Part shown: positions 17,101 through 55,655 of the stretch, piece after piece
Layout of the letters: each line of letters starts with the position of its first letter
How positions within the stretch are numbered: the first letter of the stretch is position 1
Assembly: GCA_020854835.1 (NCBI GenBank)
Contig: JAHKLX010000022.1
Span: 55,242 to 119,241 of the forward strand
Origin: Candidatus Micrarchaeota archaeon
GTDB taxonomy: Archaea; Micrarchaeota; Micrarchaeia; Anstonellales; JAGGVH01
DNA length: 64,000 bases
Direction of reading: 5' to 3'
Made by a program: the position numbers and the translations under genes
Notes under the pieces: model-generated
Seen by the model: the letters and a program-made list of their open reading frames with translations, nothing else
Database searches by the model: none
Told to the model about the DNA's origin: nothing

Positions 17101-19587
17101 TATGCTGTTGATTCATTTAGATATGAAAATCCTGCATATTTTTTTAATTGGAACACTCTTGTTTTGGCAGGTCAAACAATGCTTATGGCAACACCCATGT
17201 TAAGACCATCTGGAGGTTATTTAACTCGAGGAATTGAAAATGAACTCAGTCAAAGAACTGCTTTAAGATGGTTTTTGAATGTTGCTCCGGTTTCAACAGC
17301 ATCAACCAAAAGCGTTGCATCAAATTTACTTGCAGATGGACTGAGATTAACTGATATGGCTATGAGTGCATATTATCTATCAAGAACGGGTTATAGGGTT
17401 GTTGATTTCATATCTGGTGGAGAAACTACATTGGGTGATGTACTTTTAGATGTTGCATATGCTAGTTATGCAGGAATGAAAGTTACGGGCCGTATGCCCT
17501 ATATCAACGTTACTCCATATACTGGGGGCGATGCTGTTTTTAGGTTTAGAAATCCAGATACGGGAGGTTTTGGTTTTAAATTTGCGCCTCGAGCTATTAC
17601 ACTTGATTATGGTATCACTAATTCTAGATTTCATAGGAGACATGTGTATAATGTCCAAACAGATGTTTTCAGATCAAAAGAATCTGGAGTTGATGCAGTT
17701 CAAGGTTATAGTTCGGAAGCGTACAGTACAAATACTTTTCTTAGAAATTTTGTAGGGCTTAACGAAGATCAATTATATAAATTGTCTATTGTTTTTTCAG
17801 ATGGTGCATCAACCAAAAATCTGAATGACAGATTGATAAGGGAAGAACCTGATTTAGTTTTGGGGCGTATAGTTGAGTCATCAAACAATTTTGTATCTGG
17901 ATTAGAAGGGTATAACAAACCCCTAACGATGGTATCTGGAGAAGAAGTTTTTGGATTATATTTAATTTCTGATGTAAGCAGGGCAAGAGATATTGTAAAT
18001 AACGCTCCAACATACCGAACAAATCTCCTCAATGATCCTCTTTTACAAAGATCGAGTCAAACATTTAGTGTACGGGGGAAACATGGTCTTTTAGATATAC
18101 CCTATGAAAGGACAAGCATCGTTGTGTTTGATCCGAAAGCAGTAATTGAAGGCCGATCAAATCCAGCAGATTTGGCCAGTGTTGCTGACAGGATGCATAA
18201 TGTTGAAAAAAATATTTGGAAGCCAATAGGAGAGATGACACGGAGAGTCAATCTTCAGGGTCAAGAGATGTATGAATTTCAATTAAGAATATATGATAAT
18301 GCTAGGAACGGTGTAAACTTCAATAATTTAACTGATGATATTCGGAGCAGTATAAGTGAAACACAATACAATGCATTATCAAATGAGATTGTTATAATAC
18401 GAAACAACCTTATAAAAGCTGGTGCTTCAGATAATTTAGTAGACAGGTTCTTAACTGGCATTTCAGGAAGTATTCTATATGTTGAAAATTATGCTGTGGC
18501 CAGAGATTTTTTAGAAAGATATGAGCCAGTACCTCAATTCAGGGCAGACCAATTCATTAAAGTTGAACCGGTAATGAAGGATCTCAACAATTCTGCTGAA
18601 GCTTCTTCAAAAACAGGAAAAAGAACACTTGTTGTTAATGGTAAAACAGTTAGTTTAGACAGTGGTGGGCCCAATAAAGATTTTCAAAACACATTGAAAG
18701 ATGGCGATGTGGTTATGCTTCTTGATTTAGATATTGACCACAATTTCAAAATTGGTAAATCAAATGTTCAATTTGGGGGAACGCGTACTCTCAAAACAGC
18801 AAACAGCGCAACAGGATATACTGAAGCAAACAAAATTGTAATTACACATATCGCACACGCAGTATATAGTGAAGCATCTAAAATTGATCCTGATGTCCAG
18901 ATTTCATTCAACGGAACTAAAATACTTGTCAAATTCAGTTCTGCAGGATTGGGTGAAAGACCAGTTACGAGTTTTATATCTAATGTGGAGCAAAACATTG
19001 CCAACAATTTTGAGATAGATAGGGGACATATCATGTTGCACGGTTCATCTATTGTATGTACGGGGGATGCGGCCAATGATCTAACTTTATTGCACGAAGG
19101 GTTTAAAATTTCTCAAAACAATCGTGATTTCAGAGGCAATAATCGTAGTTTTTTAGTTATTGATAGAAACGCCCTAACATCCATATACACAAATTCTGAA
19201 ATCAGTAGGGTTTTATCTAATCAACTAACCAGTTTGGCTGACGAAGTAAGGAATTTTGGAGAAGGAGTTATCAGAAATGAGGATAGGGCAATGCTTGATA
19301 TACTTCTTGGTGCAGATGGGGCCAACCGATTCTTAGAGACTGTTCGTTCAAATAATAGTGTAATTAATTTATTATATGGGGAAATATACGACCGAAATGC
19401 AAATTCGCTAATAGATTGGGGCCAATTCAATCAAATTGTTCTTAATAATGGAGGAATGCCTAATTGGTATGAAAATCATGTGTATACTGCACAAAACAGA
19501 AACCTTCCTACTGATGTAAGAGCATTGATCGGAACTCCAAGTGAAATTAGTTCGGCTTTGGGTGCATTATTCCCTCAAACAAAGTAG
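14143..19587 (+). CDS. Giant orphan protein (1,814 aa) with a helical N-terminal half, a central hydrophobic block and a large C-terminal region
   Basis: Uninterrupted 5.4-kb ORF with ordinary codon composition. No signal peptide. Hydrophobic segments at about 16960-17500. TATA-like box about 25 nt upstream of the ATG, so probably leaderless. Confidence 0.7.
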   Translation: MSHTFRIDEETRKEGVSLSLIVPTRVQDKYSIGAPTDYYTTYLSFSNDQLVSELRYINDQLNNKDSNTLNDCKLRLNAISRALEFKSHDTIELKLASVKLLAASKMLSEDSKIESIENARTYIEDVSTRIDTYQQNEYMKHFSQNIKTVRNQIRGELEGLNFSPELKEKAIAYWENQYDAIVSDKNFNTMKEKANNFIQLTDCIISIGSLDAEAREYILPYFEQGLEEQDYGLIYKSRLMGEIHLLVYNNPLSNLTDEQKQKIQEILGLSVFPDQYFINLFENTSPGLLPISELENFYENLDFETRVIIAVTNSLDNNYSESAELFVRAYNSKDRDLYMRGLLSTEYDTTIGQFIELSRELGYTESEIQSVLDKAYELKKEIPGAGNERYNDLFFELDVLKYLTLVMAYQIELNQVKPDFKVIIDNLKQLGSDGEKIADNLTDVFNIYNNSIQNSYDMLQINGTVDEQLYMARLQLYTSIETAQNTIENFRQIQRAELEGLILLTHIEQDAGIHDFFPPVSTIQSTLPDNSLDSVGFSTTQTRTTTRDYLSMLDPLSFIRGKQNDQTTPQDQLEEFKRTRFPYPSPEQVKSSQLPDVVRNDFENTTYYYNLSQKQDEKDKQVIEEFEKATTPLERQKIILTQRIERIFERDLKLNRPMNENSVFLRHMSLDIGPYIEEWKDMIDSAKSLADLGDIYFQISKQASMLSVMKPMLIEAGEGQINISIPRTSVYVQAILDSKNSEELQDNINKAMAVLKLAAELKSISTVLNQNRQEDASYEIEKMLNDLLLYGNVGGSGSFIDPRNELVLSGKLSDISIAFLVMGDSFSDSEINDILHAVHLSLNAMGGSSEQKTNAIEAFNVWSEKRQAAESAFYASDNPYANRWSQILGGKYSRFIPFWNPELYSYLASDKNNIYWSPHPIYDRFNDEWTESAFSGFINDPKTQGLMVASSFLGGAVAYKGVQVLSLASRFSQGFYLGRAALLGSKYAVDSFRYENPAYFFNWNTLVLAGQTMLMATPMLRPSGGYLTRGIENELSQRTALRWFLNVAPVSTASTKSVASNLLADGLRLTDMAMSAYYLSRTGYRVVDFISGGETTLGDVLLDVAYASYAGMKVTGRMPYINVTPYTGGDAVFRFRNPDTGGFGFKFAPRAITLDYGITNSRFHRRHVYNVQTDVFRSKESGVDAVQGYSSEAYSTNTFLRNFVGLNEDQLYKLSIVFSDGASTKNLNDRLIREEPDLVLGRIVESSNNFVSGLEGYNKPLTMVSGEEVFGLYLISDVSRARDIVNNAPTYRTNLLNDPLLQRSSQTFSVRGKHGLLDIPYERTSIVVFDPKAVIEGRSNPADLASVADRMHNVEKNIWKPIGEMTRRVNLQGQEMYEFQLRIYDNARNGVNFNNLTDDIRSSISETQYNALSNEIVIIRNNLIKAGASDNLVDRFLTGISGSILYVENYAVARDFLERYEPVPQFRADQFIKVEPVMKDLNNSAEASSKTGKRTLVVNGKTVSLDSGGPNKDFQNTLKDGDVVMLLDLDIDHNFKIGKSNVQFGGTRTLKTANSATGYTEANKIVITHIAHAVYSEASKIDPDVQISFNGTKILVKFSSAGLGERPVTSFISNVEQNIANNFEIDRGHIMLHGSSIVCTGDAANDLTLLHEGFKISQNNRDFRGNNRSFLVIDRNALTSIYTNSEISRVLSNQLTSLADEVRNFGEGVIRNEDRAMLDILLGADGANRFLETVRSNNSVINLLYGEIYDRNANSLIDWGQFNQIVLNNGGMPNWYENHVYTAQNRNLPTDVRALIGTPSEISSALGALFPQTK

Positions 19588-35279: not shown

Positions 35280-36095
35280 ATGCCTTTATTTAATACAACT
35301 ATCATGCAAGTTTTTCCTGGTACTAATGTTGGAACTTCAGAGGAATTTATGAGCGGTGACAATACTTACTCTGAAGATGGTCAGATTTATTCAGAATCTA
35401 CTGGAGAGTTAGATGTATCTAACAAGGAGGTTAGAGTAAATCCTAAAAAACGTGTTTTGAATTTTAAACCAGGGACCTTAGTTTATGGCAGAATTGAAAA
35501 CATAATGGATCCTATTGCTATTGTATCTATAATACCTGCTGAAGATGAGGAAGATATAAGATATGCAAATCCTGATATTTGGGCAGCTTTGCACGTATCC
35601 AAATTGGGATTCGGATATGTTAATGAATTACGCGATGTCATTATGGTGGGGGACATTATAAGGGCAGAAATAACAAGGTATGAACCTAGAAAGGGTACTG
35701 TTGACATAACAATGGATGGAAAAGGGTTGGGAGTTATAATTCCAAGATTTGGTAGAAAAATCCAACCTCCTAAATCTTCAAGACCTCGCAGAGATTTTGG
35801 GGATAGAGGAGGATACAGGGATTCGAGACCTCCTCGAAATTCTGGACCTAGAAGCTCTAGGGATTCTGGACCAAATAAAAGATCTTTTGGACAAAAAAGA
35901 AACTATGAGAATAACGATTCAAAAAGTTCTACTTCAAGACCAAGTTCTACTTCAAGACCTTCCCAGGATTCTTCATCTAATGTTCAAAAATACCAAAAAT
36001 CCTATCAAACAAACCGTAAGAAAAAAGTTTATGGCAACAAAGAAACTACTCGAGAAAAATCTGTTAAAAACATTAAAAGAATGATAAAAGAATAA
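35280..36095 (+). CDS. csl4: Exosome RNA-binding subunit Csl4-like with a degenerate zinc ribbon and an R/G/S-rich tail
   Basis: N-terminal PGTNVGTSEEF...GELDVSNKEVRV and an S1 domain (GTLVYGRIENI...AALHVS). Sits immediately upstream of rpoL, as in many archaea. No cysteines where the Zn ribbon normally lies. Confidence 0.6.
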   Translation: MPLFNTTIMQVFPGTNVGTSEEFMSGDNTYSEDGQIYSESTGELDVSNKEVRVNPKKRVLNFKPGTLVYGRIENIMDPIAIVSIIPAEDEEDIRYANPDIWAALHVSKLGFGYVNELRDVIMVGDIIRAEITRYEPRKGTVDITMDGKGLGVIIPRFGRKIQPPKSSRPRRDFGDRGGYRDSRPPRNSGPRSSRDSGPNKRSFGQKRNYENNDSKSSTSRPSSTSRPSQDSSSNVQKYQKSYQTNRKKKVYGNKETTREKSVKNIKRMIKE

Positions 36096-37453: not shown

Positions 37454-40400
37454 ATGCACTCGATTAAACCCAAAAAAATTAAACCTAAAAACAGACAGCT
37501 TAGTACGTTAGGCTTGGCAGGAGCTGTTTTCTTTTCAGCTTTTCAATCAACAATTGCTCAGGTACATGACCCGGGGGGGGAATATGTGCAAAACGAATCT
37601 ACTCAACAAAAAGAATATAAACTTTCACAGGCACATTTTACTACAGAAGGTGAGGAAATGGTTAGGTATGAAAATAAAAGCGAGCAATCTGTAAGTAATG
37701 AAATGCCAAAAGCTATAGAAGATTTATTTAAAAAACAAAAGTTAATGTCAGGTAAATTAGATGAATTCAAATCACACTTTTCAAGAGTTGCAGGTGAAGA
37801 TTATAACAAAGCCTTATTTGCAGCAAAATATGTTCTTTTAACAGGAGATACCAACACATGGAATGAAATAACATCTGAAACAACAATAAGGGATATTCAA
37901 ATTAAAATTAAAGAAGTATATCTTACTAATAATCTGCAACATATGTTTATTGAAAATGGTTTTAAAGATATTCTCCCTTCTATTGAATCTTTAAATTCTG
38001 TTCCTGTGAGTATTATAAATGCTGAAAAATATAATGAGGGTTTGGAATTTGGAATAAAATTTGCACACATAATGCAATACTTTATGATAAGTGGTTCTTA
38101 TGACGAATTAAATTATATTATTTCAAATCTAGAACAATGCGCCATGTATTTAAATGATTCAAATTATTCAAAAGGATTTTATGATGCATCTAAAGGCGTA
38201 AATAAAAAATACACAAGAGCTGCCATAGATAGAATAATAAATTTTGCTAAAAACACTAGAGAATTTATTTTTGATTTGGATGCATATTCTAGTTTGATGA
38301 ACAACCCCAATTATGTTTTTTCAGCGGATGAAAAAGAAGTTTTTTTGGGTAGGATGCGAAACTATGAAACATCATATGGTTCAGCTGCGTTTTTGTTTAT
38401 TTTAGAAAGACACTATGGTCTTAAAAATGGTGAAACGACAGGAATAGATCTTCTTGATAACATGATAACCAGAATGTATGGCTCAGTGTCTGATCCTCGT
38501 AAAACTTTAGACAATTATTTTAGTTCAGGATCAAAAACTAACTTAGATTTTACAAACACATACGATTCAGCAGTTACAAAAGCAAGATCAAGTGTTTCAA
38601 ATTTTATAGATAAAAAAATGAAAAGAACATTGGATTATCAAAGTACTTTTTCAAGTGTTGATATTTTTGCACAATATTATCTATTTTGCCAAAAAGATAA
38701 AGATGGAAACACACTCTATGATGATATGATTGGCAGATTTGGAGAACATACGACATCTATAATGCAGGATTTATCAATTTTAAATACTTTGTCTGTAACA
38801 GGACAGCAGGCATTTTTGACAGATGTTTTTGATCCGCTGAGTAAAGTTTTTCCATATTTTATATATGAAGTCTTACAAACCATGTCAGGTTATGATTCAC
38901 AAATAAATGGATTGAGTTTTCCTTTCAAAGATGAAACAAACCGTTCATTAACAGTTAGAAATTTTTATTTAAACATCCCCAATGCAATTAATACAGCCGG
39001 TAAAAATATTATTAGAAATGTAATGGAAGACATGTACCAAGGGGGAATGATCGATGCGTATGGTCAAGAGAGAGATATTGAAACAATTAACAGTGTTTCA
39101 GATGAAATATTGAGGAGAATAATTGAACTTCCGAGTGTTTCATATGCCGACATCAATATTCCATTCTTTCCAGATATATATGAAACCACTAGATCCTCTG
39201 CAAGTCCTTTCTTATCTCTGGCACAATTATTTTCTCCATTTGGAAATGAAATGATTTCTGAAGTGAGAGAAAGAACTGATGTGATGGTAAACTATATGCC
39301 GAATTTAATTGTTCTGCTCGAAGCGATTGATTATTTAGTTCCAGTTCATCCCCCAATAATTGAAGTTACAAGAAGAGTAACTGAGGGGCAAGCTTCAGGA
39401 TCAGCGTCAGGAAATAGAGAAGAAACATTTTCAAGATATGCTGAGGGTTCGGTTGGCCAGGAATTAGCAGGACCAATGGGTACAAGAAGAAAATGGGCAC
39501 TCACAGCAAACACAAATGATGAATATACTTTTGAAGGAACAACTCGGGGGGATGATTGGTCTGGACTCATGAATTCACTATATTTGGATCAAGCATATTT
39601 GGGCGTTGCATGGGAAGGCATTGAAGGCACAAAAAGTCAGGGAACAATGACTGATCTTGATGTATGGTTAAAAGCATACAGACCTTCTTCAGATACCCAG
39701 GACAAAGTTGAATTTTATGAAGTTTGTAAATACAACAAAGAAAGCAATGTATGGGAATTGTATTCTTTTGCAAACACTGGAGATTATGGTGGAAAGTTAT
39801 ATTTCATAGGAAAAAGAGAATTTGATTTTGAAGAAACTCAAAATGGGTATGTGAGAACCTGGTTGGGAGGTATTATTGATATAAAAGATGTTCATAATTT
39901 TGAAAACAATGAAAATGGTTTTGTGTTTTCTGCTTTAATTCCTAAATCAAGTTTAGGCGCTGGAGGGGTTGTTGCTAAAGATGAGACTTGGGGTGCAGCA
40001 ACTACTATATCTGGTGAAGAGTCTGAGATTATATTTAGATTTTCACATCTTAAAAACTTTGAAGAAGCTGCTGCCACATTTATCAAAAATGAAAAAACTT
40101 TGGTTGAAATTGCGACAAGATTTGAAGGAGAATCTGGACTTGCAGGAAGGTATGTCATAAAGAGAGATTGGGGTTATTCGCAGGGTATGACAAATTTACA
40201 AATCGAAAGAATTAAAGAACGCGGTGGAGTGGGTGCAGAGGCTTATATTGAAGATATAAATCTTTATTTTATTGAAAATATAAATCTTTATTTGAATGCA
40301 GGAAGAATTTGGGGATATCAAGAGACATGGAATTCAATTGGCAAATTTTCGTGGTCAAAAGGTTTTTTACAAGGTTCCGTAACCTCTGAATCTGAATCTG

Positions 40401-41188
40401 CAACAGGTCATGCTTTAGCTTCGTTTGGAACTTTCAAAGCTTCAATGCCTTTTGTTTTTGATGTTTTTAAACAAGAATTCGAAAAAACAAATTTAGAGAT
40501 GTTATACTCGCCAGATCAAGTTTTATTGTTTAATGCTTCATTTATGGCAGATTCTGAAACAGAACAGCTGATAAGATCAGCAGGGGTAAGTGCAGGAGTA
40601 TTAAGTGAAACAGATGAACTAGTTCTCGGGGGAACTGCCATTATGCAGTCAGGCGATAACAAATATTTTTTAGGTGCGGGAGTTATGCCGGGCATGGCAG
40701 GAATCACTGGAGGAATACTAACTCCTGAAGAGCTTCTTAATGGAACTTTAATAGCATTTGTTCAAGGTGCGTGGGGAATCAACGAAAACGATGCGGCTAA
40801 AATAGCTGCTGTGCTTGCAGACAGAATGAACAAAGGAGAAATATATTTGGGCGTACAATATGATAGAAATGTTGGAAGCCCAGTTATTAGATTATTATCT
40901 CCCGACACCATGCCTGAATACGAAAGACAGGGTGCCCTCATAGGAACAAAAATCTACACTTTGGTCGGCGAGGGGAAAAAAAGAGGTTTACTATCAGTTG
41001 ATTTGCGCACAGAATATTCAAGAGAATTAAAACCTGAAGATATAATTTCAATAATGAGCAGACTCAGGGTTGATTATCAAAGAACCAATTTAAGTGGATA
41101 TGGCGAAATTAATTACGAGTGGAAAAGGACTGGAGCGGATTGGGATAAGTCGTGGGGAATTAGTTTCGGTGTGACTTATTGGTTTTAA
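37454..41188 (+). CDS. Large secreted orphan protein (1,244 aa)
   Basis: Signal-peptide-like N-terminus (KKIKPKNRQLSTLGLAGAVFFSAFQSTIAQV). Uninterrupted 3.7-kb ORF. C-terminus is ...WGISFGVTYWF. Confidence 0.65.
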   Translation: MHSIKPKKIKPKNRQLSTLGLAGAVFFSAFQSTIAQVHDPGGEYVQNESTQQKEYKLSQAHFTTEGEEMVRYENKSEQSVSNEMPKAIEDLFKKQKLMSGKLDEFKSHFSRVAGEDYNKALFAAKYVLLTGDTNTWNEITSETTIRDIQIKIKEVYLTNNLQHMFIENGFKDILPSIESLNSVPVSIINAEKYNEGLEFGIKFAHIMQYFMISGSYDELNYIISNLEQCAMYLNDSNYSKGFYDASKGVNKKYTRAAIDRIINFAKNTREFIFDLDAYSSLMNNPNYVFSADEKEVFLGRMRNYETSYGSAAFLFILERHYGLKNGETTGIDLLDNMITRMYGSVSDPRKTLDNYFSSGSKTNLDFTNTYDSAVTKARSSVSNFIDKKMKRTLDYQSTFSSVDIFAQYYLFCQKDKDGNTLYDDMIGRFGEHTTSIMQDLSILNTLSVTGQQAFLTDVFDPLSKVFPYFIYEVLQTMSGYDSQINGLSFPFKDETNRSLTVRNFYLNIPNAINTAGKNIIRNVMEDMYQGGMIDAYGQERDIETINSVSDEILRRIIELPSVSYADINIPFFPDIYETTRSSASPFLSLAQLFSPFGNEMISEVRERTDVMVNYMPNLIVLLEAIDYLVPVHPPIIEVTRRVTEGQASGSASGNREETFSRYAEGSVGQELAGPMGTRRKWALTANTNDEYTFEGTTRGDDWSGLMNSLYLDQAYLGVAWEGIEGTKSQGTMTDLDVWLKAYRPSSDTQDKVEFYEVCKYNKESNVWELYSFANTGDYGGKLYFIGKREFDFEETQNGYVRTWLGGIIDIKDVHNFENNENGFVFSALIPKSSLGAGGVVAKDETWGAATTISGEESEIIFRFSHLKNFEEAAATFIKNEKTLVEIATRFEGESGLAGRYVIKRDWGYSQGMTNLQIERIKERGGVGAEAYIEDINLYFIENINLYLNAGRIWGYQETWNSIGKFSWSKGFLQGSVTSESESATGHALASFGTFKASMPFVFDVFKQEFEKTNLEMLYSPDQVLLFNASFMADSETEQLIRSAGVSAGVLSETDELVLGGTAIMQSGDNKYFLGAGVMPGMAGITGGILTPEELLNGTLIAFVQGAWGINENDAAKIAAVLADRMNKGEIYLGVQYDRNVGSPVIRLLSPDTMPEYERQGALIGTKIYTLVGEGKKRGLLSVDLRTEYSRELKPEDIISIMSRLRVDYQRTNLSGYGEINYEWKRTGADWDKSWGISFGVTYWF

Positions 41189-45392: not shown

Positions 45393-45503
45393 TGGGCCAG
45401 GCCGGACTTGAACCGGCGACCTACGGTTTGCTCAGACATGAGAAACTTGCGCCAGAACGGGTCATATAAGACCGTCGCTCTAACCAGACTGAGCTACTGG
45501 CCC
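45393..45503 (-). tRNA. Intron-containing tRNA, most likely tRNA-Ile(UAU) with a 36-nt intron at the canonical 37/38 position
   Basis: The reverse complement reads GGGCCAG-TA-GCTC-AGTCTGGTTA-GAGC-G-ACGGT-CTTATA[36 nt]A-ACCGT-AGGTC-GCCGG-TTCAAGT-CCGGC-CTGGCCC-A. All four stems pair perfectly. The T-loop is TTCAAGT. CCA is not encoded. Confidence 0.85.
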
Positions 45504-46443: not shown

Positions 46444-46581
46444 ACTTGTTTTTTATCAGAAAATTTTATAATGATTCTCAAGTTTTTACTTTTAGAAAAG
46501 ATTTATAAATCTTGCCATATTTTAAAAAAGCGTGATGAATTCTTTTCACAATATGGGTTGAATTAATTTTAGGTGATATAT

Positions 46582-48066
46582 ATGGATAGTATGAAATATT
46601 TTGTTTTTGCAGCATTCGTGCTGATGATTTTTGGAATGGGCATTGTTAATGCTAGTCTTGCTTTTGAACAAGGAGTTTGTAAGCAAACAGTTATGGAAAG
46701 TATTATTTTAACTGAGGATATAACTTGTGTGAAAGAAAATTTGGGCCAATTTGATGCTGGTTTAGATGTGGGCGCAGATAATATTGTTATTGATTGTCAA
46801 GGACATACACTAACGGGTCCAGGGGGATTTTCAGATTATTATCCTAGGGGAATTAATAATAATGGTCATAATAATGTAACCATAAAAAACTGTACGATCG
46901 CCGATTTTTATACTAGTATTATGTTTAGTGGTGCAAGCAATAGTACAATTGAGAATAACAATCTCAGTTACAGCACTAATTATGGTTTATATTTCAAGTC
47001 AAGTTCTAATAATAACACTATTGCAAATAACCTTATTAGTTACAATGGTAATAATGCACTAATTTTTACCGGTTGTTCTGAAAATTTGTTAATAAATAAT
47101 ACTGTAAATTACAATTCACAAATAGCGTTCTCATTTACCGAGAGTTCAAATAATAATACCTTCATAGGTAATACTGCCAATTCTAATTATATGTACGGTT
47201 TTTTATTGCGTGACAGCACAAATAATATTCTTATCAATAATATTGCCAATTCAAATGAGTATGAGGGTATCGTAATCTGGGATAGTTCCAATACTACTCT
47301 TGACAACAATACTGCCAATTCCAACTTGGCGCGTGGTATTTACATAACTGGTGTTTCCGATAGCACCATAAACAATTTATATGCCTGCGGTAATGTTGTG
47401 GGGGATTTGTATGATAGTAATGTCCCAAATAGCAATTGGACAAATTCCACTTATAGTACTTCTTCAACCCCCTCAGGCTGTGGAGCAGAAGATGAAGACT
47501 GCAGAGAATATTTTGATCAGATTGCTGAATGTGAAGAAGCACCAGAATGTACAATCCCATCAGACGGAATGTTGATAGATGAAAGTGTAATTTTATGTTC
47601 AGGAACTTATAATTTAGAAAATGGAATAACAATAAACGCAAATGATGTTACTGTAACCTGTGATGAAACTGTTTTGAACGGAACTGGTTCAAATAATGGA
47701 ATTTATCTTGGTTCAAAACAAAGAGTAACTGTGACTGGTTGTACTGTTCAGAATTATAATCATGGCATTTACCTTTCAACTAGTAGTTTTAATACTTTAA
47801 CTAATAACACGGTTTCCAATAATTATAATGGAATCCTTCTTACTGGGGGTACTGTAAATAATCTTATTAACAATACGGTTACATTAAACAATAATCATGG
47901 TATTTATCTTGCTAGTAGTAGTTTTAATACTTTAACTAATAACACAGTTTCCAATAATACTGAAACTGGAATACGCATCGAATCAAGTGGAACGTGTACT
48001 TTGGATAATAATATTGTTACGGACAATAATGACGGTATTAAACTAATGGCTAGTATTAATAGCTAG
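46582..48066 (+). CDS. N-terminal fragment of a modular right-handed beta-helix (PbH1/NosD-like) surface protein; the reading frame is broken at 48064 by a 13-bp duplication
   Basis: Signal/anchor segment MKYFVFAAFVLMIFGMGIVNA, then repeated N-rich motifs of about 22 aa (NNTI.NN....G). ATG 46582 follows AGGTGA. Confidence 0.8.
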   Translation: MDSMKYFVFAAFVLMIFGMGIVNASLAFEQGVCKQTVMESIILTEDITCVKENLGQFDAGLDVGADNIVIDCQGHTLTGPGGFSDYYPRGINNNGHNNVTIKNCTIADFYTSIMFSGASNSTIENNNLSYSTNYGLYFKSSSNNNTIANNLISYNGNNALIFTGCSENLLINNTVNYNSQIAFSFTESSNNNTFIGNTANSNYMYGFLLRDSTNNILINNIANSNEYEGIVIWDSSNTTLDNNTANSNLARGIYITGVSDSTINNLYACGNVVGDLYDSNVPNSNWTNSTYSTSSTPSGCGAEDEDCREYFDQIAECEEAPECTIPSDGMLIDESVILCSGTYNLENGITINANDVTVTCDETVLNGTGSNNGIYLGSKQRVTVTGCTVQNYNHGIYLSTSSFNTLTNNTVSNNYNGILLTGGTVNNLINNTVTLNNNHGIYLASSSFNTLTNNTVSNNTETGIRIESSGTCTLDNNIVTDNNDGIKLMASINS

Positions 48067-48074
48067 TATTAATA
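48049..48074 (+). repeat. Perfect 13-bp tandem duplication (GCTAGTATTAATA x2) causing a +1 frameshift
   Basis: Positions 48049-48061 and 48062-48074 are identical. Deleting one copy joins ...KLMASIN to NNLNNNTVCSNT... in a single frame. Confidence 0.95.
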
Positions 48075-48079
48075 ACAAT

Positions 48080-51000
48080 TTGAATAATAATACTGTTTGC
48101 TCAAATACATTGGATTTAAATGGTACATGGTCATCTTATCCAAATAATGACTGGTCTAATTCAACTTATGATACGTCCGACCCTGATAATCACATTTATT
48201 TTGATAGAATTTCTTGGTGTAATGGCACTGAGTTCACTTACACTCCGATCAATGTTACTTTAACCGGTCCAGCAAATGGAGCGTTAATTACTGAAGATTC
48301 AACAACATTAAATTATACTGTTAACATTGAAGCGAACTGTACTGTTTATCACAACATAACTGGCTGGCGCGCAGACTGCGAGACAAACGGGACAACTGGC
48401 GCATCATGCGGAGTCAATTCAATGGAAGATGGAGTTTATGAATGGAATGTTTATTGTGTTGACGCTAATGATGAAATAAACAGTGCGTGGGCAGAAGAAA
48501 CTAATCGGACATTTACTGTTAACACAGGGTTTATTCAAGGAGTTTGCGAACAAACAATAACCAAAGATGCGACCCTTACAGAAAATTTAGATTGCAGGGA
48601 TGAAAAAGGGATAATAATCGGAGCGGACAATCTTGTAATTGATTGTGATAATTATAACCTAACTGGTGACGGAACGTATTTGGGTATAGAAATTAATGGT
48701 TACAATAACATAACAGTTCAAAACTGCAACATATATACTTTTGCAACTGGAATTTCATTGGCACATACTGTTAACAATACCATTCAAAACAATTACATGG
48801 AAGATAATGGTTTCGCTCCTACGACAGGAATTAATTTGTATAATGCGAATTACACAGACATTTTAGATAACATAATTGTTTCCGATAGGGGAGATGGAGT
48901 TCACCTTGAAGAGAGTTTTTACAATAATTTGGAAAGAAATAATGCGAGCACTAACGCAAGACATGGATTTTATATAGAATTAAGTGATAACAATACTTTA
49001 ACAGATAACATTGCAGTATCCAACGGAAAATACGGTTTTTATGTTGAGTTAAGTTATTACAACATTTTAACAGGCAATTATGCAGGTTATAATGGTTATG
49101 ATGGATTATATTTATCGGGAAGCGATAATAATACCTTAATTGAAAATGTTGTAGAAAACAATTATTTCAACGGTTTGTTTTTAGACGGAAGCTCTTACAA
49201 TATTTTAACTGGTAATGAAGTGAGCGGGCATCCACTGGGAGAACCAAGCGGATATTTTGGTTTAGGATTACTTGACAATTCAAATTTTAACACATTGGAA
49301 GATAACTTAATGACCAATAATTTTATAGGATTGTATTTGTTTGGCGTTCATAATAATACATTTATTAATACCACCACAACAAATAATACGTACGGTACTC
49401 AACAATTTATAGATGCGGACAATACTTTTATAGACACTTATGCGTGCGGAAACGATGTTTATGATATACTCGAGGATGATTTAAACAACACTTGGATACG
49501 CACCATTTATTCAATTTCTGATGCAAATGCAACCTATCTTGACCAGATAGCAACATGCCCGATCGTGCAGGGTGTCTGCGGACAGATTATTGGAATAAAT
49601 ACTGTATTAACTGAAGATATTATTTGTGAAGATGGAGATTTAGGTGAAGGTGAAGCCGCTTTAAGCATTGTTGCCGATAGTATAACAATAGATTGTAATG
49701 GTTATGCATTGGTAGGTTATGAAGGCATAGGTATAGGCATAGAAGGAGTTGGTTATGATGGAATAACACTTGTTAATTGTAATATAACTAATTTCTTGAC
49801 TGGTGTTTATATTGAAGATTCTATCGGAACTGAAATTTATGATAATCATGTACATTACAATGGAATGTGGCGTCCCGATGATACTGGAATTCATTTCTAT
49901 AATGTAAACTATTCTTCAATATACAATAATTTTGTTTATGAAAATGATATCGGAATAGTATTGGAAGATTCAAATGAAAATGAGATTTATGGCAATGAAA
50001 TTTATGAAAACTTAGGTTCTGGAATAGAATTTTACAATTCAATACATAATGAAGTATATGAAAATGAAATTTACTTTAATATGTATGGTATGTATTTTGA
50101 AAATACTAATAATACATTAATGTATGACAATTTAGTATGTTTAAATGATCTTATTGATATTCTTTTCCGTGAAGATGCTGAAGGAAATGAGGGAGAAAAT
50201 ATTTGTAATGTCTTAAATGATATCGCCGAGTCTAATGCAGAAGTTTCCTGCCCGACAGGATGCCCATATTATGGGACTTGTGGAGCTGAAATAGGTAATA
50301 GTATTATTTTTGGTAAAGACATGGAAAATTGCGAAAATGGATTATTAATCACTGCATCTGATGTTGTAATTGATTGTAATGGTTATGGAATTTATGGAGA
50401 TAATACAAGTGGGGGATTTGGAATAGTAGTAGATTCAGTAGATAATGTAACCATACATAATTGTACTATTAAATATTTTGGAGAAGGAATTGCACTATTC
50501 GGCTCTAATGGTAGTACTATTACTAACAATCATTTAGATTCAAACGGAGTAGGCAGTATAGGTACAGGTATTTTAATGATTGAAAGCAACTACACTACTG
50601 TTCAGAATAATCTTATTGAAAATGATCTTGGGAATGGTATATATGTTCTTTTAGGAAATCTCAATACCATCGCAAATAATGAGTTAATCAATAATTATTA
50701 CGGAATGTTAGTTGAAGGTTCAAATAATAACTCAATAGAAGATAATATTTGCAATGAAAATTTAGAAGGAATTGTTTTATCTGACAGTTCAAATTACAAT
50801 ACCTTATTAAGAAATACTGTAAACAGGAACGAATTATTTGGAATTTATTTGACTGGCCCCAGCATGCACAATTATTTAATTGAAAATACTGTCAGTCAAA
50901 ATTATGGGGGCCCCTCTTATGGAATTTTGATTGATACTGGTGCCGATAATAATACGCTAACAAACAATACTGTTATTCAAAATGATGTAGGTATTTCAAT

Positions 51001-52912
51001 TGACTCTGCAGACAACACATTAACAGATAATTTTGCGTGTTCGAATACAAATTTTGATGTCACAGATTCTTTAAACGAAAGCACATGGACAAGAACAACT
51101 TACACCCTATCTGATCCTATAAATACAACTTACTTTGATCAATTGGATACTTGCCCCTTCCTACAAGGTGTCTGTGGACAGACAATAACTGAAAGCATAA
51201 CTTTGACAGAAGATATGGATTGTTCTTGGACAAATATTGATGGTATAAAGGTTATTGGTGCAGGAGATTTAGTAATTGACTGCGATGGACACAAACTAAT
51301 CGGTGACGGTGGAGAAGAGGGGAATGTAGGCATATACATCTTAGAACAAAATAATATTGAAATACTCAATTGCGAAATAGAAGGATTCTTTTATGGAATA
51401 GAAATAGATACGGGGGATAATGTTAGTGTAGAAGATTCGAATATACATGATAATACTTGTGAGGGTTTGTATATTTATGAATCAAACACAACAGTCAAAA
51501 ACACAATTTTCCAAGACAATTTGGATTTATGCGCCAGAACAGGTTTGTACCTCTCAGCTTCAACTTTACACCTATTCAACAGCCATTTCATTAATAACGA
51601 TGAATATGGGTTGTATGAAGAATTCAGAGTAGAGTTGGACACAGTCTACTGGACAATAGAGGATTATGCATCATGTATAGATAATAATATGCAGTTTAGT
51701 ACAGAAGACGGATACATAACTTTTGACGGTGGAATATTACATCTAGACAACTGTGTTTTAGAAATTTATAATCAAGAAACAGAAACATGGGCAAATTGGA
51801 CAATTACGGGCAACATGACAGATTATGTTCCGCCAAAAGAAATGGAAGAAAATGATACTGCAACATTTGAATTTGATAATTCAGACACACAAATAGACTT
51901 AAATTTAAATGACACTGTTAATGCCTCAGTTTTTGTAGGTTTGTTGGATGATGAAGATGTGGGCAGTTTAGGAATCGGACCAATCGGTATGTTACCTTTC
52001 AAAGGTATTCAAGTAGAATTAAACGAAGATGCAAACAATACATTAAATTGGGCAATAATTAGAATATATTATACAGATGCAGAATTAGATGCATTAGGAA
52101 TTGAAGAGTCCTCATTAAGAATGTACTATTTCAATGAAACATCTGGTGAATGGGAACTTGTAGAAGAGCAGGGAATCGTTACAACTCCTCCTAAATATGT
52201 TTGGGGAAATGTAACACATTTCAGTACGTATGCTTTATTTGGTGAGGAAGCAGAAGAGGCAGATGACGACGATGATGACGACGATGATGACGATCCAGTA
52301 AGAAGAGGTGGAAGTGGAGGGGGAGCAGTTGCAGTTGGCTCAAGACCTCCAGCAGATGAAGAAGATGAAGATGATACAACTGAACAAGATGTAATTGATG
52401 ATATTATACCAGAAATAATCCCTCCAGTTCAACCATATAAATGTTATGAAATGACATGGAATTATGAATACAACAATTTAATCAACCAACCAGTAACAAT
52501 AACAGTTTTAGCAAACGATCAACCAGCTGAAAATGTTTTAATTGACATTGTTTCACCATTAAACAAAATAATTTCTTTAACAACTGACGCAACAGGCAGA
52601 GCAACTTTCACACCAGATTATGAAGGCATCTACAAAGCACAAATAAGAAGCTGTGATACAAAAGGTTCAATAAACGTTTTAACATCAATGCCCTCAGTTA
52701 AACCTCCAACAACAGAACCAGATCCTGGATCAACAATAGTTGAACCAGAACAACAAACAGATTGGCTTTGTATTGGTGCAATAATTGTCATTGTTTTGAT
52801 AATAGGAGTTGCGGTTCTTGGTGGAGCAGGCGGACTTGCTGCTTTAGGAGCAACAGGGAAAACACCAATAGGTAGTTCTCCTGATAAAAGTCTTCCTAAA
52901 AAACGCAAATAA
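48080..52912 (+). CDS. C-terminal part of the same beta-helix surface protein: multiple PbH1 modules, poly-Asp linker, Ig-like domain, C-terminal TM anchor
   Basis: The frame is open from 48047 and has no ATG or SD of its own (the track uses TTG 48080). It repeats the QGVC.QT...LTED..C...D..VIDC.G..L.G cap modules, carries an 11-residue poly-Asp run, and ends in WLCIGAIIVIVLIIGVAVLGGAG followed by the basic tail PKKRK. Confidence 0.8.
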   Translation: MNNNTVCSNTLDLNGTWSSYPNNDWSNSTYDTSDPDNHIYFDRISWCNGTEFTYTPINVTLTGPANGALITEDSTTLNYTVNIEANCTVYHNITGWRADCETNGTTGASCGVNSMEDGVYEWNVYCVDANDEINSAWAEETNRTFTVNTGFIQGVCEQTITKDATLTENLDCRDEKGIIIGADNLVIDCDNYNLTGDGTYLGIEINGYNNITVQNCNIYTFATGISLAHTVNNTIQNNYMEDNGFAPTTGINLYNANYTDILDNIIVSDRGDGVHLEESFYNNLERNNASTNARHGFYIELSDNNTLTDNIAVSNGKYGFYVELSYYNILTGNYAGYNGYDGLYLSGSDNNTLIENVVENNYFNGLFLDGSSYNILTGNEVSGHPLGEPSGYFGLGLLDNSNFNTLEDNLMTNNFIGLYLFGVHNNTFINTTTTNNTYGTQQFIDADNTFIDTYACGNDVYDILEDDLNNTWIRTIYSISDANATYLDQIATCPIVQGVCGQIIGINTVLTEDIICEDGDLGEGEAALSIVADSITIDCNGYALVGYEGIGIGIEGVGYDGITLVNCNITNFLTGVYIEDSIGTEIYDNHVHYNGMWRPDDTGIHFYNVNYSSIYNNFVYENDIGIVLEDSNENEIYGNEIYENLGSGIEFYNSIHNEVYENEIYFNMYGMYFENTNNTLMYDNLVCLNDLIDILFREDAEGNEGENICNVLNDIAESNAEVSCPTGCPYYGTCGAEIGNSIIFGKDMENCENGLLITASDVVIDCNGYGIYGDNTSGGFGIVVDSVDNVTIHNCTIKYFGEGIALFGSNGSTITNNHLDSNGVGSIGTGILMIESNYTTVQNNLIENDLGNGIYVLLGNLNTIANNELINNYYGMLVEGSNNNSIEDNICNENLEGIVLSDSSNYNTLLRNTVNRNELFGIYLTGPSMHNYLIENTVSQNYGGPSYGILIDTGADNNTLTNNTVIQNDVGISIDSADNTLTDNFACSNTNFDVTDSLNESTWTRTTYTLSDPINTTYFDQLDTCPFLQGVCGQTITESITLTEDMDCSWTNIDGIKVIGAGDLVIDCDGHKLIGDGGEEGNVGIYILEQNNIEILNCEIEGFFYGIEIDTGDNVSVEDSNIHDNTCEGLYIYESNTTVKNTIFQDNLDLCARTGLYLSASTLHLFNSHFINNDEYGLYEEFRVELDTVYWTIEDYASCIDNNMQFSTEDGYITFDGGILHLDNCVLEIYNQETETWANWTITGNMTDYVPPKEMEENDTATFEFDNSDTQIDLNLNDTVNASVFVGLLDDEDVGSLGIGPIGMLPFKGIQVELNEDANNTLNWAIIRIYYTDAELDALGIEESSLRMYYFNETSGEWELVEEQGIVTTPPKYVWGNVTHFSTYALFGEEAEEADDDDDDDDDDDPVRRGGSGGGAVAVGSRPPADEEDEDDTTEQDVIDDIIPEIIPPVQPYKCYEMTWNYEYNNLINQPVTITVLANDQPAENVLIDIVSPLNKIISLTTDATGRATFTPDYEGIYKAQIRSCDTKGSINVLTSMPSVKPPTTEPDPGSTIVEPEQQTDWLCIGAIIVIVLIIGVAVLGGAGGLAALGATGKTPIGSSPDKSLPKKRK

Positions 52913-52974: not shown

Positions 52975-54723
52975 ATGAAAGCTTCAGAATTAAAAAAGTT
53001 ATATATTGATTTCTTCAAATCTAAAGGTCATGCTGTGATAGAATCAAATTCACTTGTACCCGAACATGATCCAACTGTTTTATTTACAACAGCAGGAATG
53101 CACCCTTTAGTTCCCTATATTCTTGGTCAGAAACATCCTTTGGGGAAAAGACTAGTTAATGTTCAAAAATGCTTAAGAACAGATGACATAAATGAAATTG
53201 GAGATTATTATCACCATACTTTCTTTGAAATGCTTGGTAATTGGTCATTGGGAGATTACTTTAAAATTGAAGCAATTGAATATAGTTTTGAATTTTTAAC
53301 TGAGATATTGAAAATACCTTTGAATAAATTGGCAATAACTTGTTTTGCAGGAGATGATGACTCTCCAAAGGATGAAGTATCTGCAAACGTCTGGAAAGCT
53401 TTGGGTATTTCTGAAGAACGAATTGTTTTTCTAGGGAAAAAACATAATTGGTGGGGTCCCCCTGGGGCAACAGGTCCTTGTGGTCCAGACACTGAAATGT
53501 TTTATTGGGCAGACGAAAGCAAACCCCCTGAAAAATTTGATCCTGAAGATGATAGATGGGTAGAGATATGGAATGATGTTTTCATTCAATATGAAAAAAC
53601 ATCAGAGGGGAAATATATTCCCCTAAAACAAAAATGTGTTGACACAGGTTTGGGTGTTGAAAGAGTTTCAGCAGTTTTACAAGGATATATGGATAATTAT
53701 AAGACCGAACTTTTCTGGCCCATCATCGAAAAAATCCAAGAATTAACAAAAAAAGATTACCAAGACAACAAAAAAATAATGAGAATCATTGCAGACCACA
53801 CACGTGCCGCAGTTTTTATTCTGGGGGATGAAAGAGATGTTGTCCCTTCAAATGTTGATCAAGGTTATATCTTAAGAAGATTGGTTCGAAGAGTTATTCG
53901 CCATATGAAAATGCTTGGCTGTGAAAAATCAATGAGTATTCTGGCAGGAGAAGTAATTTCAATATATCAAACCAATTATTCTTCATTAAATTCAAAAAAA
54001 GAATATATATTGGGTGAATTGGAAAAAGAAGAAACAAAATTCCAAAAAACATTAGAAAAGGGATTAAAAGAATTTGAAAAAATAACTGAAAATTCAAACG
54101 AATTACTTGGAAAAGACGCGTTTTTATTATTCCAAAGTTATGGTTTTCCCATTGAATTAACAAAAGAATTATGCAACGAACAAGGAATAATTTTGGATAA
54201 AAAAGGATTTGAAAGAGAATACGAAAAACACCAAATGCTTTCAAGGGTTGGTGCAGAGCAAAAATTTAAAGGAGGATTGAGCGAAGCATCTGATGAAACA
54301 AAAAAACTCCATACTGCAACCCACCTTTTAAATGAAGCCTTGCGCAGAGTTTTATCTTCAGATATCAAACAAAAAGGAAGCAACATAAATTCTAAAAGAC
54401 TGCGATTTGATTTTAATTTTGATAGAAAATTAACTGAAGAAGAAATCAAGAGGATTGAGGATGAAATCAACCGAATTATAGGATTAAATTTACCCATAAC
54501 TGCACAAGAAATGCCTCTACAAAAGGCTTTGGATTCTGGGGCTCAGGCAGAATTTGGTGCGAAATATCCTGATGTAGTTACAGTTTATTATGTTGGTGAT
54601 TATTCAAAGGAGATTTGCATGGGTCCTCACGTTGAGAATACTAAGGACTTAGGGAGTTTCAAAATATTAAAAGAAGAATCAAGTGCAGCAGGAATAAGAA
54701 GAATAAAAGCAGTTTTAGAATAA
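52975..54723 (+). CDS. alaS: Alanine--tRNA ligase, bacterial-type N-terminus, short form without a C-Ala domain
   Basis: LYIDFFKSKGHAVIESNSLVPEHDPTVLFTTAGMHPLVPYILG, FFEMLGNWSLGDYFK and GPCGPDTEMF, plus the editing-domain motifs HTATHLL and CMGPH. Total length is only 582 aa. Confidence 0.9.
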   Translation: MKASELKKLYIDFFKSKGHAVIESNSLVPEHDPTVLFTTAGMHPLVPYILGQKHPLGKRLVNVQKCLRTDDINEIGDYYHHTFFEMLGNWSLGDYFKIEAIEYSFEFLTEILKIPLNKLAITCFAGDDDSPKDEVSANVWKALGISEERIVFLGKKHNWWGPPGATGPCGPDTEMFYWADESKPPEKFDPEDDRWVEIWNDVFIQYEKTSEGKYIPLKQKCVDTGLGVERVSAVLQGYMDNYKTELFWPIIEKIQELTKKDYQDNKKIMRIIADHTRAAVFILGDERDVVPSNVDQGYILRRLVRRVIRHMKMLGCEKSMSILAGEVISIYQTNYSSLNSKKEYILGELEKEETKFQKTLEKGLKEFEKITENSNELLGKDAFLLFQSYGFPIELTKELCNEQGIILDKKGFEREYEKHQMLSRVGAEQKFKGGLSEASDETKKLHTATHLLNEALRRVLSSDIKQKGSNINSKRLRFDFNFDRKLTEEEIKRIEDEINRIIGLNLPITAQEMPLQKALDSGAQAEFGAKYPDVVTVYYVGDYSKEICMGPHVENTKDLGSFKILKEESSAAGIRRIKAVLE

Positions 54724-55322: not shown

Positions 55323-55655
55323 ATGGTGGTTAAAAAAGTAAGGGGAAAAGTATCTAAAACAGTTAAAGGTGCTGTTAAAACCAAAAAGAAAGCAGTGAAA
55401 AAAGTATCTAAAACAGTTAAAGGTGCTGTTAAAACCAAAAAGAAAGCAGTTAAAAAAGTATCTAAAACAGTTAAAGGTGCTGTTAAAACCAAAAAGAAAG
55501 CAGTGAAAAAAGTAAGCGGTAAAATATCTAAAACAGCTAGTAGAGTAAAGAAAAAAATAACTTCTGCAATCTCTATCTTAACAAAGAAAAAACCCCGCAC
55601 CAAAAGTAAAAAATCAAAAAAATCTAAAATCGAAAAAATGAAAAAATTAATTTAA
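55323..55655 (+). CDS. Lysine-rich repeat protein (linker-histone-like low-complexity basic protein)
   Basis: ATG 55323 lies about 8 nt after a GGTGGTG SD. The unit KKVSKTVKGAVKTKKKAV occurs three times, plus one degenerate copy. The track start at 55254 would run through the RNA gene. Confidence 0.6.
   Translation: MVVKKVRGKVSKTVKGAVKTKKKAVKKVSKTVKGAVKTKKKAVKKVSKTVKGAVKTKKKAVKKVSGKISKTASRVKKKITSAISILTKKKPRTKSKKSKKSKIEKMKKLI
55350..55511 (+). repeat. Three near-perfect 54-bp in-frame tandem repeats
   Basis: Copies start at 55350, 55404 and 55458, and I see one substitution among them (G/T in cagtGaaaa vs cagtTaaaa). A diverged fourth copy starts at 55512. Confidence 0.9.

Follow-up and report, generated by a model that had tools for sequence, protein, structure and literature searches.

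Does the forward strand between 46582 and 52912 of a 64,000-nucleotide (nt) stretch of Candidatus Micrarchaeota archaeon DNA (contig JAHKLX010000022.1; the whole stretch is hereafter the window) carry two adjacent protein-coding genes, or one giant beta-helix protein gene that has been broken? Two open reading frames (ORFs), 46582–48066 and 48080–52912, meet there at a tandem duplication of 13 base pairs (bp). An initial annotation, made from the letters of the window, took them for one gene of roughly 2,100 amino acids (aa) split by the duplication, and offered recent pseudogenisation, population-level on/off variation of a surface protein, and an assembly or consensus artefact as possible outcomes.

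A tandem duplication separates two reading frames

The 13-mer GCTAGTATTAATA is present twice in direct tandem, as had been described, with copy 1 at 48049–48061 and copy 2 at 48062–48074 of the forward strand; all features of this gene given below lie on this strand. From left to right the context is AAACTAATG, GCTAGTATTAATA, GCTAGTATTAATA and ACAATTTG, and the wider flanks of the pair are GGTATTAAACTAATG before copy 1 and ACAATTTGAAT after copy 2. Copy 1 is the original sequence and occurs in all alleles. Copy 2 is a 13-bp insertion that is missing in one-copy contigs and is placed at 48062 by comparison with one of them (L001, described below). The junction sequence is TTAATAGCTAGT with two copies and TTAATAACAATT with one.

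Elsewhere in the window no match to the 13-mer was found at up to one mismatch, and shuffled sequences lead one to expect 0.10 matches. Base composition predicts about 0.0045 perfect, non-simple tandem duplications of at least 13 bp per window, and the same class of duplication arose in two of 300 windows simulated with a first-order Markov model. The window has one other duplication of this class, in frame and 18 bp long, at 35924. A chance origin is ruled out directly, because sister contigs hold exactly one copy.

The extra 13 bases cause a +1 frame shift and a stop after codon 494. In the frame that opens at ATG 46582, copy 2 contains a premature TAG at 48064–48066 (read as AGC TAG), again in agreement with the initial annotation. 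The upstream fragment (46582–48066; 494 codons and the premature stop) encodes a signal peptide, the first beta-helix module and most of the second. Its translation matches residues 1–493 of the intact protein P0001 exactly, after which comes one aberrant Ser. The remaining 1,611 codons lie in the +1 frame, which is open from 48047 to its stop at 52910–52912 and contains a further four beta-helix modules together with a distinctive C-terminal domain, an acidic linker and a membrane anchor. This frame was also correctly said to have neither an ATG nor a Shine-Dalgarno sequence and to be called from TTG 48080. Its earliest possible starts are TTG 48080 and TTG 48110, from which gene callers obtain 1,610 or 1,600 aa. 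The true start at ATG 46582 has a Shine-Dalgarno-like AGGTGA 5 nt upstream (46571–46576), and the AGGTGA/GAGGTG motif also stands ahead of many ATG starts in the window; nothing comparable was found ahead of TTG 48080 or TTG 48110.

The intact gene is a single ORF

Deletion of one copy, so that 46582–48061 is joined to 48075–52912, gives a single ORF of 2,105 aa. The repaired translation is identical to P0001, a 2,105-aa protein from a JGI metagenome (100% identity, 100% coverage). The 90% cluster of P0001 has six sequences, drawn from JGI, ENA and NCBI. Two are full length (P0001 and P0123, 2,105 aa each), and they differ from one another by Val273Met. Three are shortened: P0121 and P0125, the latter from JGI, have 1,610 aa and begin at TTG 48080, and P0122, an NCBI record, has 1,600 aa and begins at TTG 48110. 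The last, P0124 (JGI 3300033169), is a 194-aa fragment.

The join falls inside a domain. In the intact protein the best Pfam stretches of Beta_helix (residues 348–501) and NosD (343–524) span the junction at residues 493/494, and in the upstream fragment the Pfam match ends at the break. The restored junction GIKLMASINNNLNNNTVCSNTLDLNG aligns with the ends of paralogous modules, with which it has G, C, N and D columns in common, and it fits their module-end motif G..N.L..N..C.N...D. A single-sequence AlphaFold model of residues 320–645 places residues 493/494 in a beta-helix strand that is followed by three more strands, at a predicted local distance difference test (pLDDT) of 60–70 there; regular strands of 4–5 residues run through residues 11–189 of the modelled segment, with pLDDT of 70–87 over most of it. 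The earlier claim that the one-copy sequence continues the beta-helix repeat is thus borne out. More distant homologues with a comparable layout are each encoded by one ORF, of about 1,600–3,600 aa. One of them, P0002 (1,978 aa), can be aligned with the N-terminus and also, at 39% identity, with the distinctive C-terminal domain. These data support the idea that 46582–48066 and 48080–52912 are a single gene broken by the duplication, as the initial annotation proposed.

One-copy and two-copy alleles coexist in one digester population

Contigs were fetched through the protein and its neighbouring proteins and then aligned to the window. The two-copy allele was read from DNA in the window and in contig k141_292121 of ENA ERZ27252302. 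The one-copy allele was read from DNA in ENA ERZ27252299 (contig L001), ENA ERZ27252305, JGI 3300033176, Logan SRR10872661 and Logan SRR10872648, and from protein only in P0001. The sources of the intact allele are the proteins P0001 and P0123 and the one-copy contigs L001, L086, L088, L089 and L095. Among the contigs the 13-mer was found in one or two copies only. The JGI sample identifiers of this series belong to an anaerobic digester in Wageningen, the Netherlands (PMC10159854).

L001, which has one copy, differs from the window by two single-nucleotide polymorphisms (SNPs) and the 13-bp indel over 18.8 kilobases (kb), and no difference was found over a further 7.6 kb. One SNP is synonymous (37573) and the other, G/A at 47398, exchanges Val273 for Met. 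G is found at 47398 in every two-copy contig and A in the sequenced one-copy contigs, and P0001 has one copy together with Val. The haplotypes seen are therefore Val with one copy, Met with one copy and Val with two copies, and these three need only one forward mutation. P0001 is the exact predicted ancestor of the two-copy haplotype. Between 48075 and 55406 we found no differences between the window and L001 that would indicate secondary decay; because no further downstream change has accumulated, the lesion is very recent.

Since two SNPs and the indel are all that separates a one-copy contig from the window over 26 kb, the duplication is real, recent and segregating. An ancestral split into two genes, the alternative that the initial annotation had set against its own proposal, is refuted by these one-copy contigs of near-identical background. 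Together, these data show that a single near-clonal digester population contains the two-copy and the intact allele side by side, and that the former is the majority (consensus) allele in some samples. Population-level variation is thus the offered outcome that was observed, with one- and two-copy contigs from sister samples on backgrounds two SNPs apart. An exact scan of metagenome and genome contig collections with a 28-mer common to both alleles gave no match, so those two collections do not contain this population.

The two-copy allele is most likely null

The possible remaining product of the two-copy allele is the 494-aa fragment, which would carry the signal peptide and would end before the last rungs of beta-helix 2, the later modules and the anchor. 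Such a fragment would be secreted unanchored and would not make a functional surface protein. The 1,611 downstream codons are most likely neither expressed nor exported, because they lack an ATG, a ribosome-binding site and a signal peptide. The two-copy allele is therefore most likely a null, loss-of-function allele. We consider it very probable that this is one gene, that a recent 13-bp duplication breaks it, that the resulting loss-of-function allele is segregating, and that the change is a mutation and not a programmed feature. For annotation, 46582–48066 and 48080–52912 should be recorded as one frameshifted gene, not as two proteins, and the public entries of 1,610 aa and 1,600 aa are truncated artefacts of the break.

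Several points weigh against this reading. The alleles are known from assembled contigs. Public assemblies may share sequencing runs, and because several of them may derive from the same runs, the independent observations of each allele are fewer than the contigs. The two-copy state of P0125 (JGI) and P0122 (NCBI) was deduced from shortened gene calls, not from DNA. Low-level translation of the downstream frame, from a TTG or by +1 slippage at AGC-UAG-U, is possible. The surface or adhesin role of the 2,105-aa protein is putative, since its function is deduced from sequence. Lastly, the replication misalignment that we propose below would require extension from a mismatched 3' end, which is unusual, so that the exact mutational route is uncertain.

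A reversible switch is unlikely

The alternative that survives best is duplication-mediated phase variation like that of cap3A, in which the duplication would turn the gene off, precise loss of one copy, through slippage between the two 13-bp repeats, would turn it on, and selection (virus pressure, or host attachment or detachment) would shift the ratio between samples. Both states are indeed found on near-identical backgrounds, each being the consensus in different samples, but one forward mutation, without any reversion, is enough to account for the haplotypes. Perfect tandem duplications are by nature liable to revert precisely; the ancestral allele, however, lacks a repeat tract that could increase the rate of the forward event, and there is one duplication only, at one site, with one change in copy number. 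The product is a large putative surface protein of a kind that phase-varies in bacteria, and other tandem repeats of this population also vary in copy number. On balance we regard phase variation of the cap3A type as unlikely.

The gene may have a second off allele, which would favour switching. A 1-bp deletion in AATAATAAT at 47155–47157 gives the 194-aa P0124 of JGI 3300033169 and is a candidate second frameshift allele. It is seen in contig L084 of the same assembly, 35 bp from the 3' end of the contig, and could be an error. Logan contig L096 (SRR10872652) ends exactly at the point of divergence, at 47155, the last base before the deletion allele departs from the wild type, where an assembly graph would branch if the variant were real; the deletion may nevertheless be an error. 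From the alleles at hand, reversible or selected switching in any form appears improbable. A fuller version seems, if anything, a shade more doubtful, namely that the archaeon would repeatedly turn off a giant putative adhesin by the 13-bp duplication and the 1-bp deletion and turn it back on by copy loss, with virus pressure or host attachment as the driver. If this were true, the locus would be the first in nature at which an archaeal episymbiont phase-varies a putative host-contact protein by duplication.

Evidence against an assembly artefact

The initial annotation had also allowed for an assembly or consensus artefact, in which the organism would have the one-copy gene only and an assembler or polisher would have made the second copy. 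Some observations fit an artefact. Two intragenic direct repeats of 68 nt (47756–47823 and 47891–47958), 91% identical, encode the repeated rung HGIYL(S/A)(T/S)SSFNTLTNNTVSNN, and several short-read assemblies break at them, with ends or starts near 47775–47809 in L088, L097 and L098; ERZ27252305 and JGI 3300033175 are among these assemblies. The gene thus has internal repeats and is broken in many short-read assemblies, and a nearby 54-bp repeat varies in copy number between assemblies, possibly by collapse.

By contrast, the identical 13-bp insertion is found both in the window and in the MEGAHIT contig of ERZ27252302. These are different contigs, set apart by the SNP at 37573 and by a 108-bp length difference in the repeat at 55346. 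Shortened gene calls in JGI and NCBI records match this insertion. The same MEGAHIT-style ENA pipeline gave one copy in ERZ27252299 and ERZ27252305, and the two-copy allele is linked to SNP state G at 47398. Moreover, tandem duplications of 13 bp are shorter than k and are not normally invented by De Bruijn assemblers. We therefore consider an artefact very unlikely.

Programmed recoding, two true genes and a mobile-element footprint

A more remote alternative is that the break is functional, either through a programmed +1 shift at AGC-UAG-U, which would give the full-length protein with a 4-aa insert, or through two true genes. As judged by eye, a stop in the 0 frame is followed by an open +1 frame, and AGU read after skipping U48064 would restore the protein; the predicted peptide across the junction would be MASINSSINNNL. 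Stop codons are able to promote +1 shifts at a low level. Against this, the site lacks conservation, sister contigs of the same population being in frame with one copy, and inspection of 48047–48066 (ATG GCT AGT ATT AAT AGC TAG) by eye revealed no CUU-UGA-C, CUU-AGG-C or A-AAA-AAX motif. In addition, the Ser tRNA reading AGC cannot re-pair on GCU. A second gene would have neither a Shine-Dalgarno sequence nor an ATG and would begin inside a beta-helix domain, and the homologues, which are single ORFs, speak against both forms of this alternative. Recoding and two true genes are together extremely unlikely.

It is just as hard to credit that an insertion sequence left a 13-bp target-site duplication and was later excised: a perfect direct duplication with no exact junctional microhomology does resemble a target-site duplication, but the two copies abut with zero residual bases, no element-occupied site was seen among the contigs examined, prokaryotic insertion sequences rarely leave a clean duplication when excised, 13 bp is not a typical length for one, and slippage through TAAT with one mismatch fully accounts for the sequence.

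How the duplication may have arisen

The unit ends in TAATA (48057–48061) and is preceded by TAATG (48044–48048), an imperfect match that is the likely site of misalignment. Because of this, Tandem Repeats Finder extends the array to 48044, with 2.4 copies and 94% matches. A nascent strand ending in TAATA (48057–48061) could have re-paired with TAATG (48044–48048); extension past the terminal mismatched A would then have copied 48049–48061 a second time, which yields the observed sequence exactly. Replication misalignment is thus the route that we infer. The initial annotation had suggested a slipped-strand or microhomology origin. The slipped strand remains the probable explanation, whereas exact junctional microhomology is absent, the match consisting of the 4 bp of TAAT and a terminal mismatch only.

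Two other routes were considered and rejected. Pure slippage mediated by TAAT predicts G at 48061, where A is observed. Templated insertion from elsewhere does not fit either, as no other place in the window has the 13-mer.

Features of the protein and its family

The predicted Sec-type signal peptide, MDSMKYFVFAAFVLMIFGMGIVNASLA (46582–46662), has n-, h- and c-regions as judged by eye from the translation. At the other end, a hydrophobic transmembrane anchor, WLCIGAIIVIVLIIGVAVLGGAGGLAALGA (52763–52852), was also recognised by eye and is followed by a basic tail that ends in KSLPKKRK. Between them the intact protein has six beta-helix modules, 62 N-X-S/T sequons and an acidic linker. For the intact protein no NCBIfam sorting-signal family was listed that would denote a C-terminal sorting signal.

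The protein matches PF13229 with 375 bits in 10 stretches (cut-off 25.9), PF05048 with 367 bits in 10 stretches (cut-off 23.6) and TIGR03804 with 347 bits in 16 stretches (cut-off 19.45), and the NosD model PF05048 matches every module. The family models and the AlphaFold model agree in predicting a right-handed parallel beta-helix. True NosD was tried as an identification and rejected, the score against NCBIfam TIGR04247 being 192 bits with a cut-off of 300.

Genomic setting

The window has a GC content of 32%, and genes for Rpr2, Pelota, wyosine synthesis and SecDF are found in the surrounding context. Upstream of the gene, Rfam gives a match to transfer RNA (tRNA) on the reverse strand at 45393–45503, which at 111 nt is long enough to include an intron; ARAGORN found no tRNA anywhere in the window. 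Scans of the window for sigma-70 promoters and terminators gave counts near those expected from shuffled sequences, and the sigma-70 model is uninformative for an archaeon.

Downstream lies a gene for alanyl-tRNA synthetase (AlaRS; 52975–54723). The 582-aa product has the catalytic domain and the second additional domain and no C-terminal domain. Its nearest sequences, at 62–70% identity, come from metagenome-assembled genomes (MAGs) labelled Micrarchaeota, Woesearchaeota and Pacearchaeota. The tRNA match, the genes named above and these AlaRS sequences mark the setting as archaeal, and the organism is probably a DPANN archaeon. Relatives of the synthetase that have a similar length, at 50–68% identity, come from DPANN-labelled MAGs and also from many MAGs labelled Bacilli, Clostridia and others. 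Such occurrence in both DPANN- and bacteria-labelled MAGs suggests gene transfer or mis-binned contigs.

Comparison with orthologous loci, a check proposed in the initial annotation, was run from this neighbour. In a tblastn search of the intact protein against 80 loci around AlaRS relatives, no beta-helix gene was found beside alaS at E <= 1e-10, so that none of these was a comparable locus; the one-copy state came from contigs of the same population. The nearest homologue, P0002, sits in a different gene context.

Other variable repeats and large ORFs

The 18-bp duplication mentioned above (35924–35959) is a perfect in-frame tandem repeat that encodes SSTSRP twice in the low-complexity C-terminal tail of an exosome Csl4 homologue (35280–36095). 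The unit is present twice in the window and in ERZ27252302 and three times in JGI 3300033172 and 3300033173, and Logan contigs break inside it. At 55346–55514 there is a 54-bp tandem repeat (3.1 copies, 98% identical) that encodes KKVSKTVKGAVKTKKKAV units. It lies in a forward-strand ORF, 55323–55655, for a Lys-rich protein of 110 aa, and contigs differ here by 108 bp, or two units, to give a product of either 74 aa or 110 aa. This difference could be real variation or repeat collapse in the k141 assemblies. Slippage-type changes are a large share of the few differences between these strains.

The longest G/C homopolymer in the window is a G8 tract at 37573–37580, in codons 40–42 of a 1,244-aa ORF (37454–41188). 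Other contigs read TG7 owing to the synonymous SNP at 37573, and no length variant was seen among the contigs compared; the tract is a candidate for slippage. In the same ORF the N-terminus resembles a signal peptide, and a 24-bp tandem repeat lies at 40246–40293. Together with 14143–19587 (1,814 aa) this ORF makes up a pair of very large ORFs with no Pfam match.

Significance and comparison with known systems

The locus is a clean, datable case in which strains of an uncultured and probably host-dependent archaeon differ by the loss of a giant putative surface protein. An existing series of digester metagenomes contains both alleles, which makes the locus a test case for whether such a protein is dispensable, counter-selected or switched during reactor operation. 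Frameshift by a short tandem duplication is a well-known type of event, and the general significance is modest.

In its architecture the protein is similar to adhesin-like beta-helix proteins of the methanogens Methanobrevibacter and Methanosphaera (PMC11532034) and to pectin-lyase-fold proteins on the surface of the DPANN archaeon Nanobdella aerobiophila, which have been proposed to serve host contact (bioRxiv 10.1101/2023.10.27.564410). All combine a signal peptide with several parallel beta-helix modules, abundant N-X-S/T sequons and membrane anchoring at the C-terminus, and the presumed role in common is contact with other cells or with glycans. The comparison of relatedness was made through the beta-helix repeats only, and the protein described here differs in having six modules and its own C-terminal domain, which is common to P0002. 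To NosD, a protein of nitrous oxide reductase maturation, the likeness consists in the match of PF05048 to every module. The present protein, however, has 2,105 aa and repeated modules, and there are no nos genes nearby; the relation is one of common fold, not of function.

Simple-sequence-repeat contingency loci, for example those of Haemophilus, Neisseria and Campylobacter, hold a standing tract of many units that slips at a high rate in both directions. The present gene is like them in the frameshift on/off variation of a putatively surface-exposed product through probable strand slippage, and in that on and off alleles coexist in sister samples of one digester series. It differs in that no standing tract of 1–7-nt units was found, the on allele having a single copy of the 13-mer. 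Because the ancestral allele holds this single copy, the forward event was an ordinary rare mutation.

Another precedent comes from Ralstonia solanacearum, in whose phcA gene tandem duplications were reportedly described by Poussier and colleagues in 2003. The closest likeness is to cap3A of Streptococcus pneumoniae, where, according to the summary in PMC11163986 of the work of Waite et al. (2001), tandem duplications turn the capsule off and reversion turns it on. In both cases an ORF for a surface structure is off, or here predicted to be off, when it contains a spontaneous perfect tandem duplication and on when it does not, and both states are present in one population. The cap3A product is a capsule enzyme, whereas the gene described here encodes a large protein of an uncultured archaeon. 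In the pneumococcus many different duplications are known and reversion was measured in culture; here a search among the contigs for several independent duplications found one, the other candidate off allele being the 1-bp deletion, and the alleles are known from sequence.

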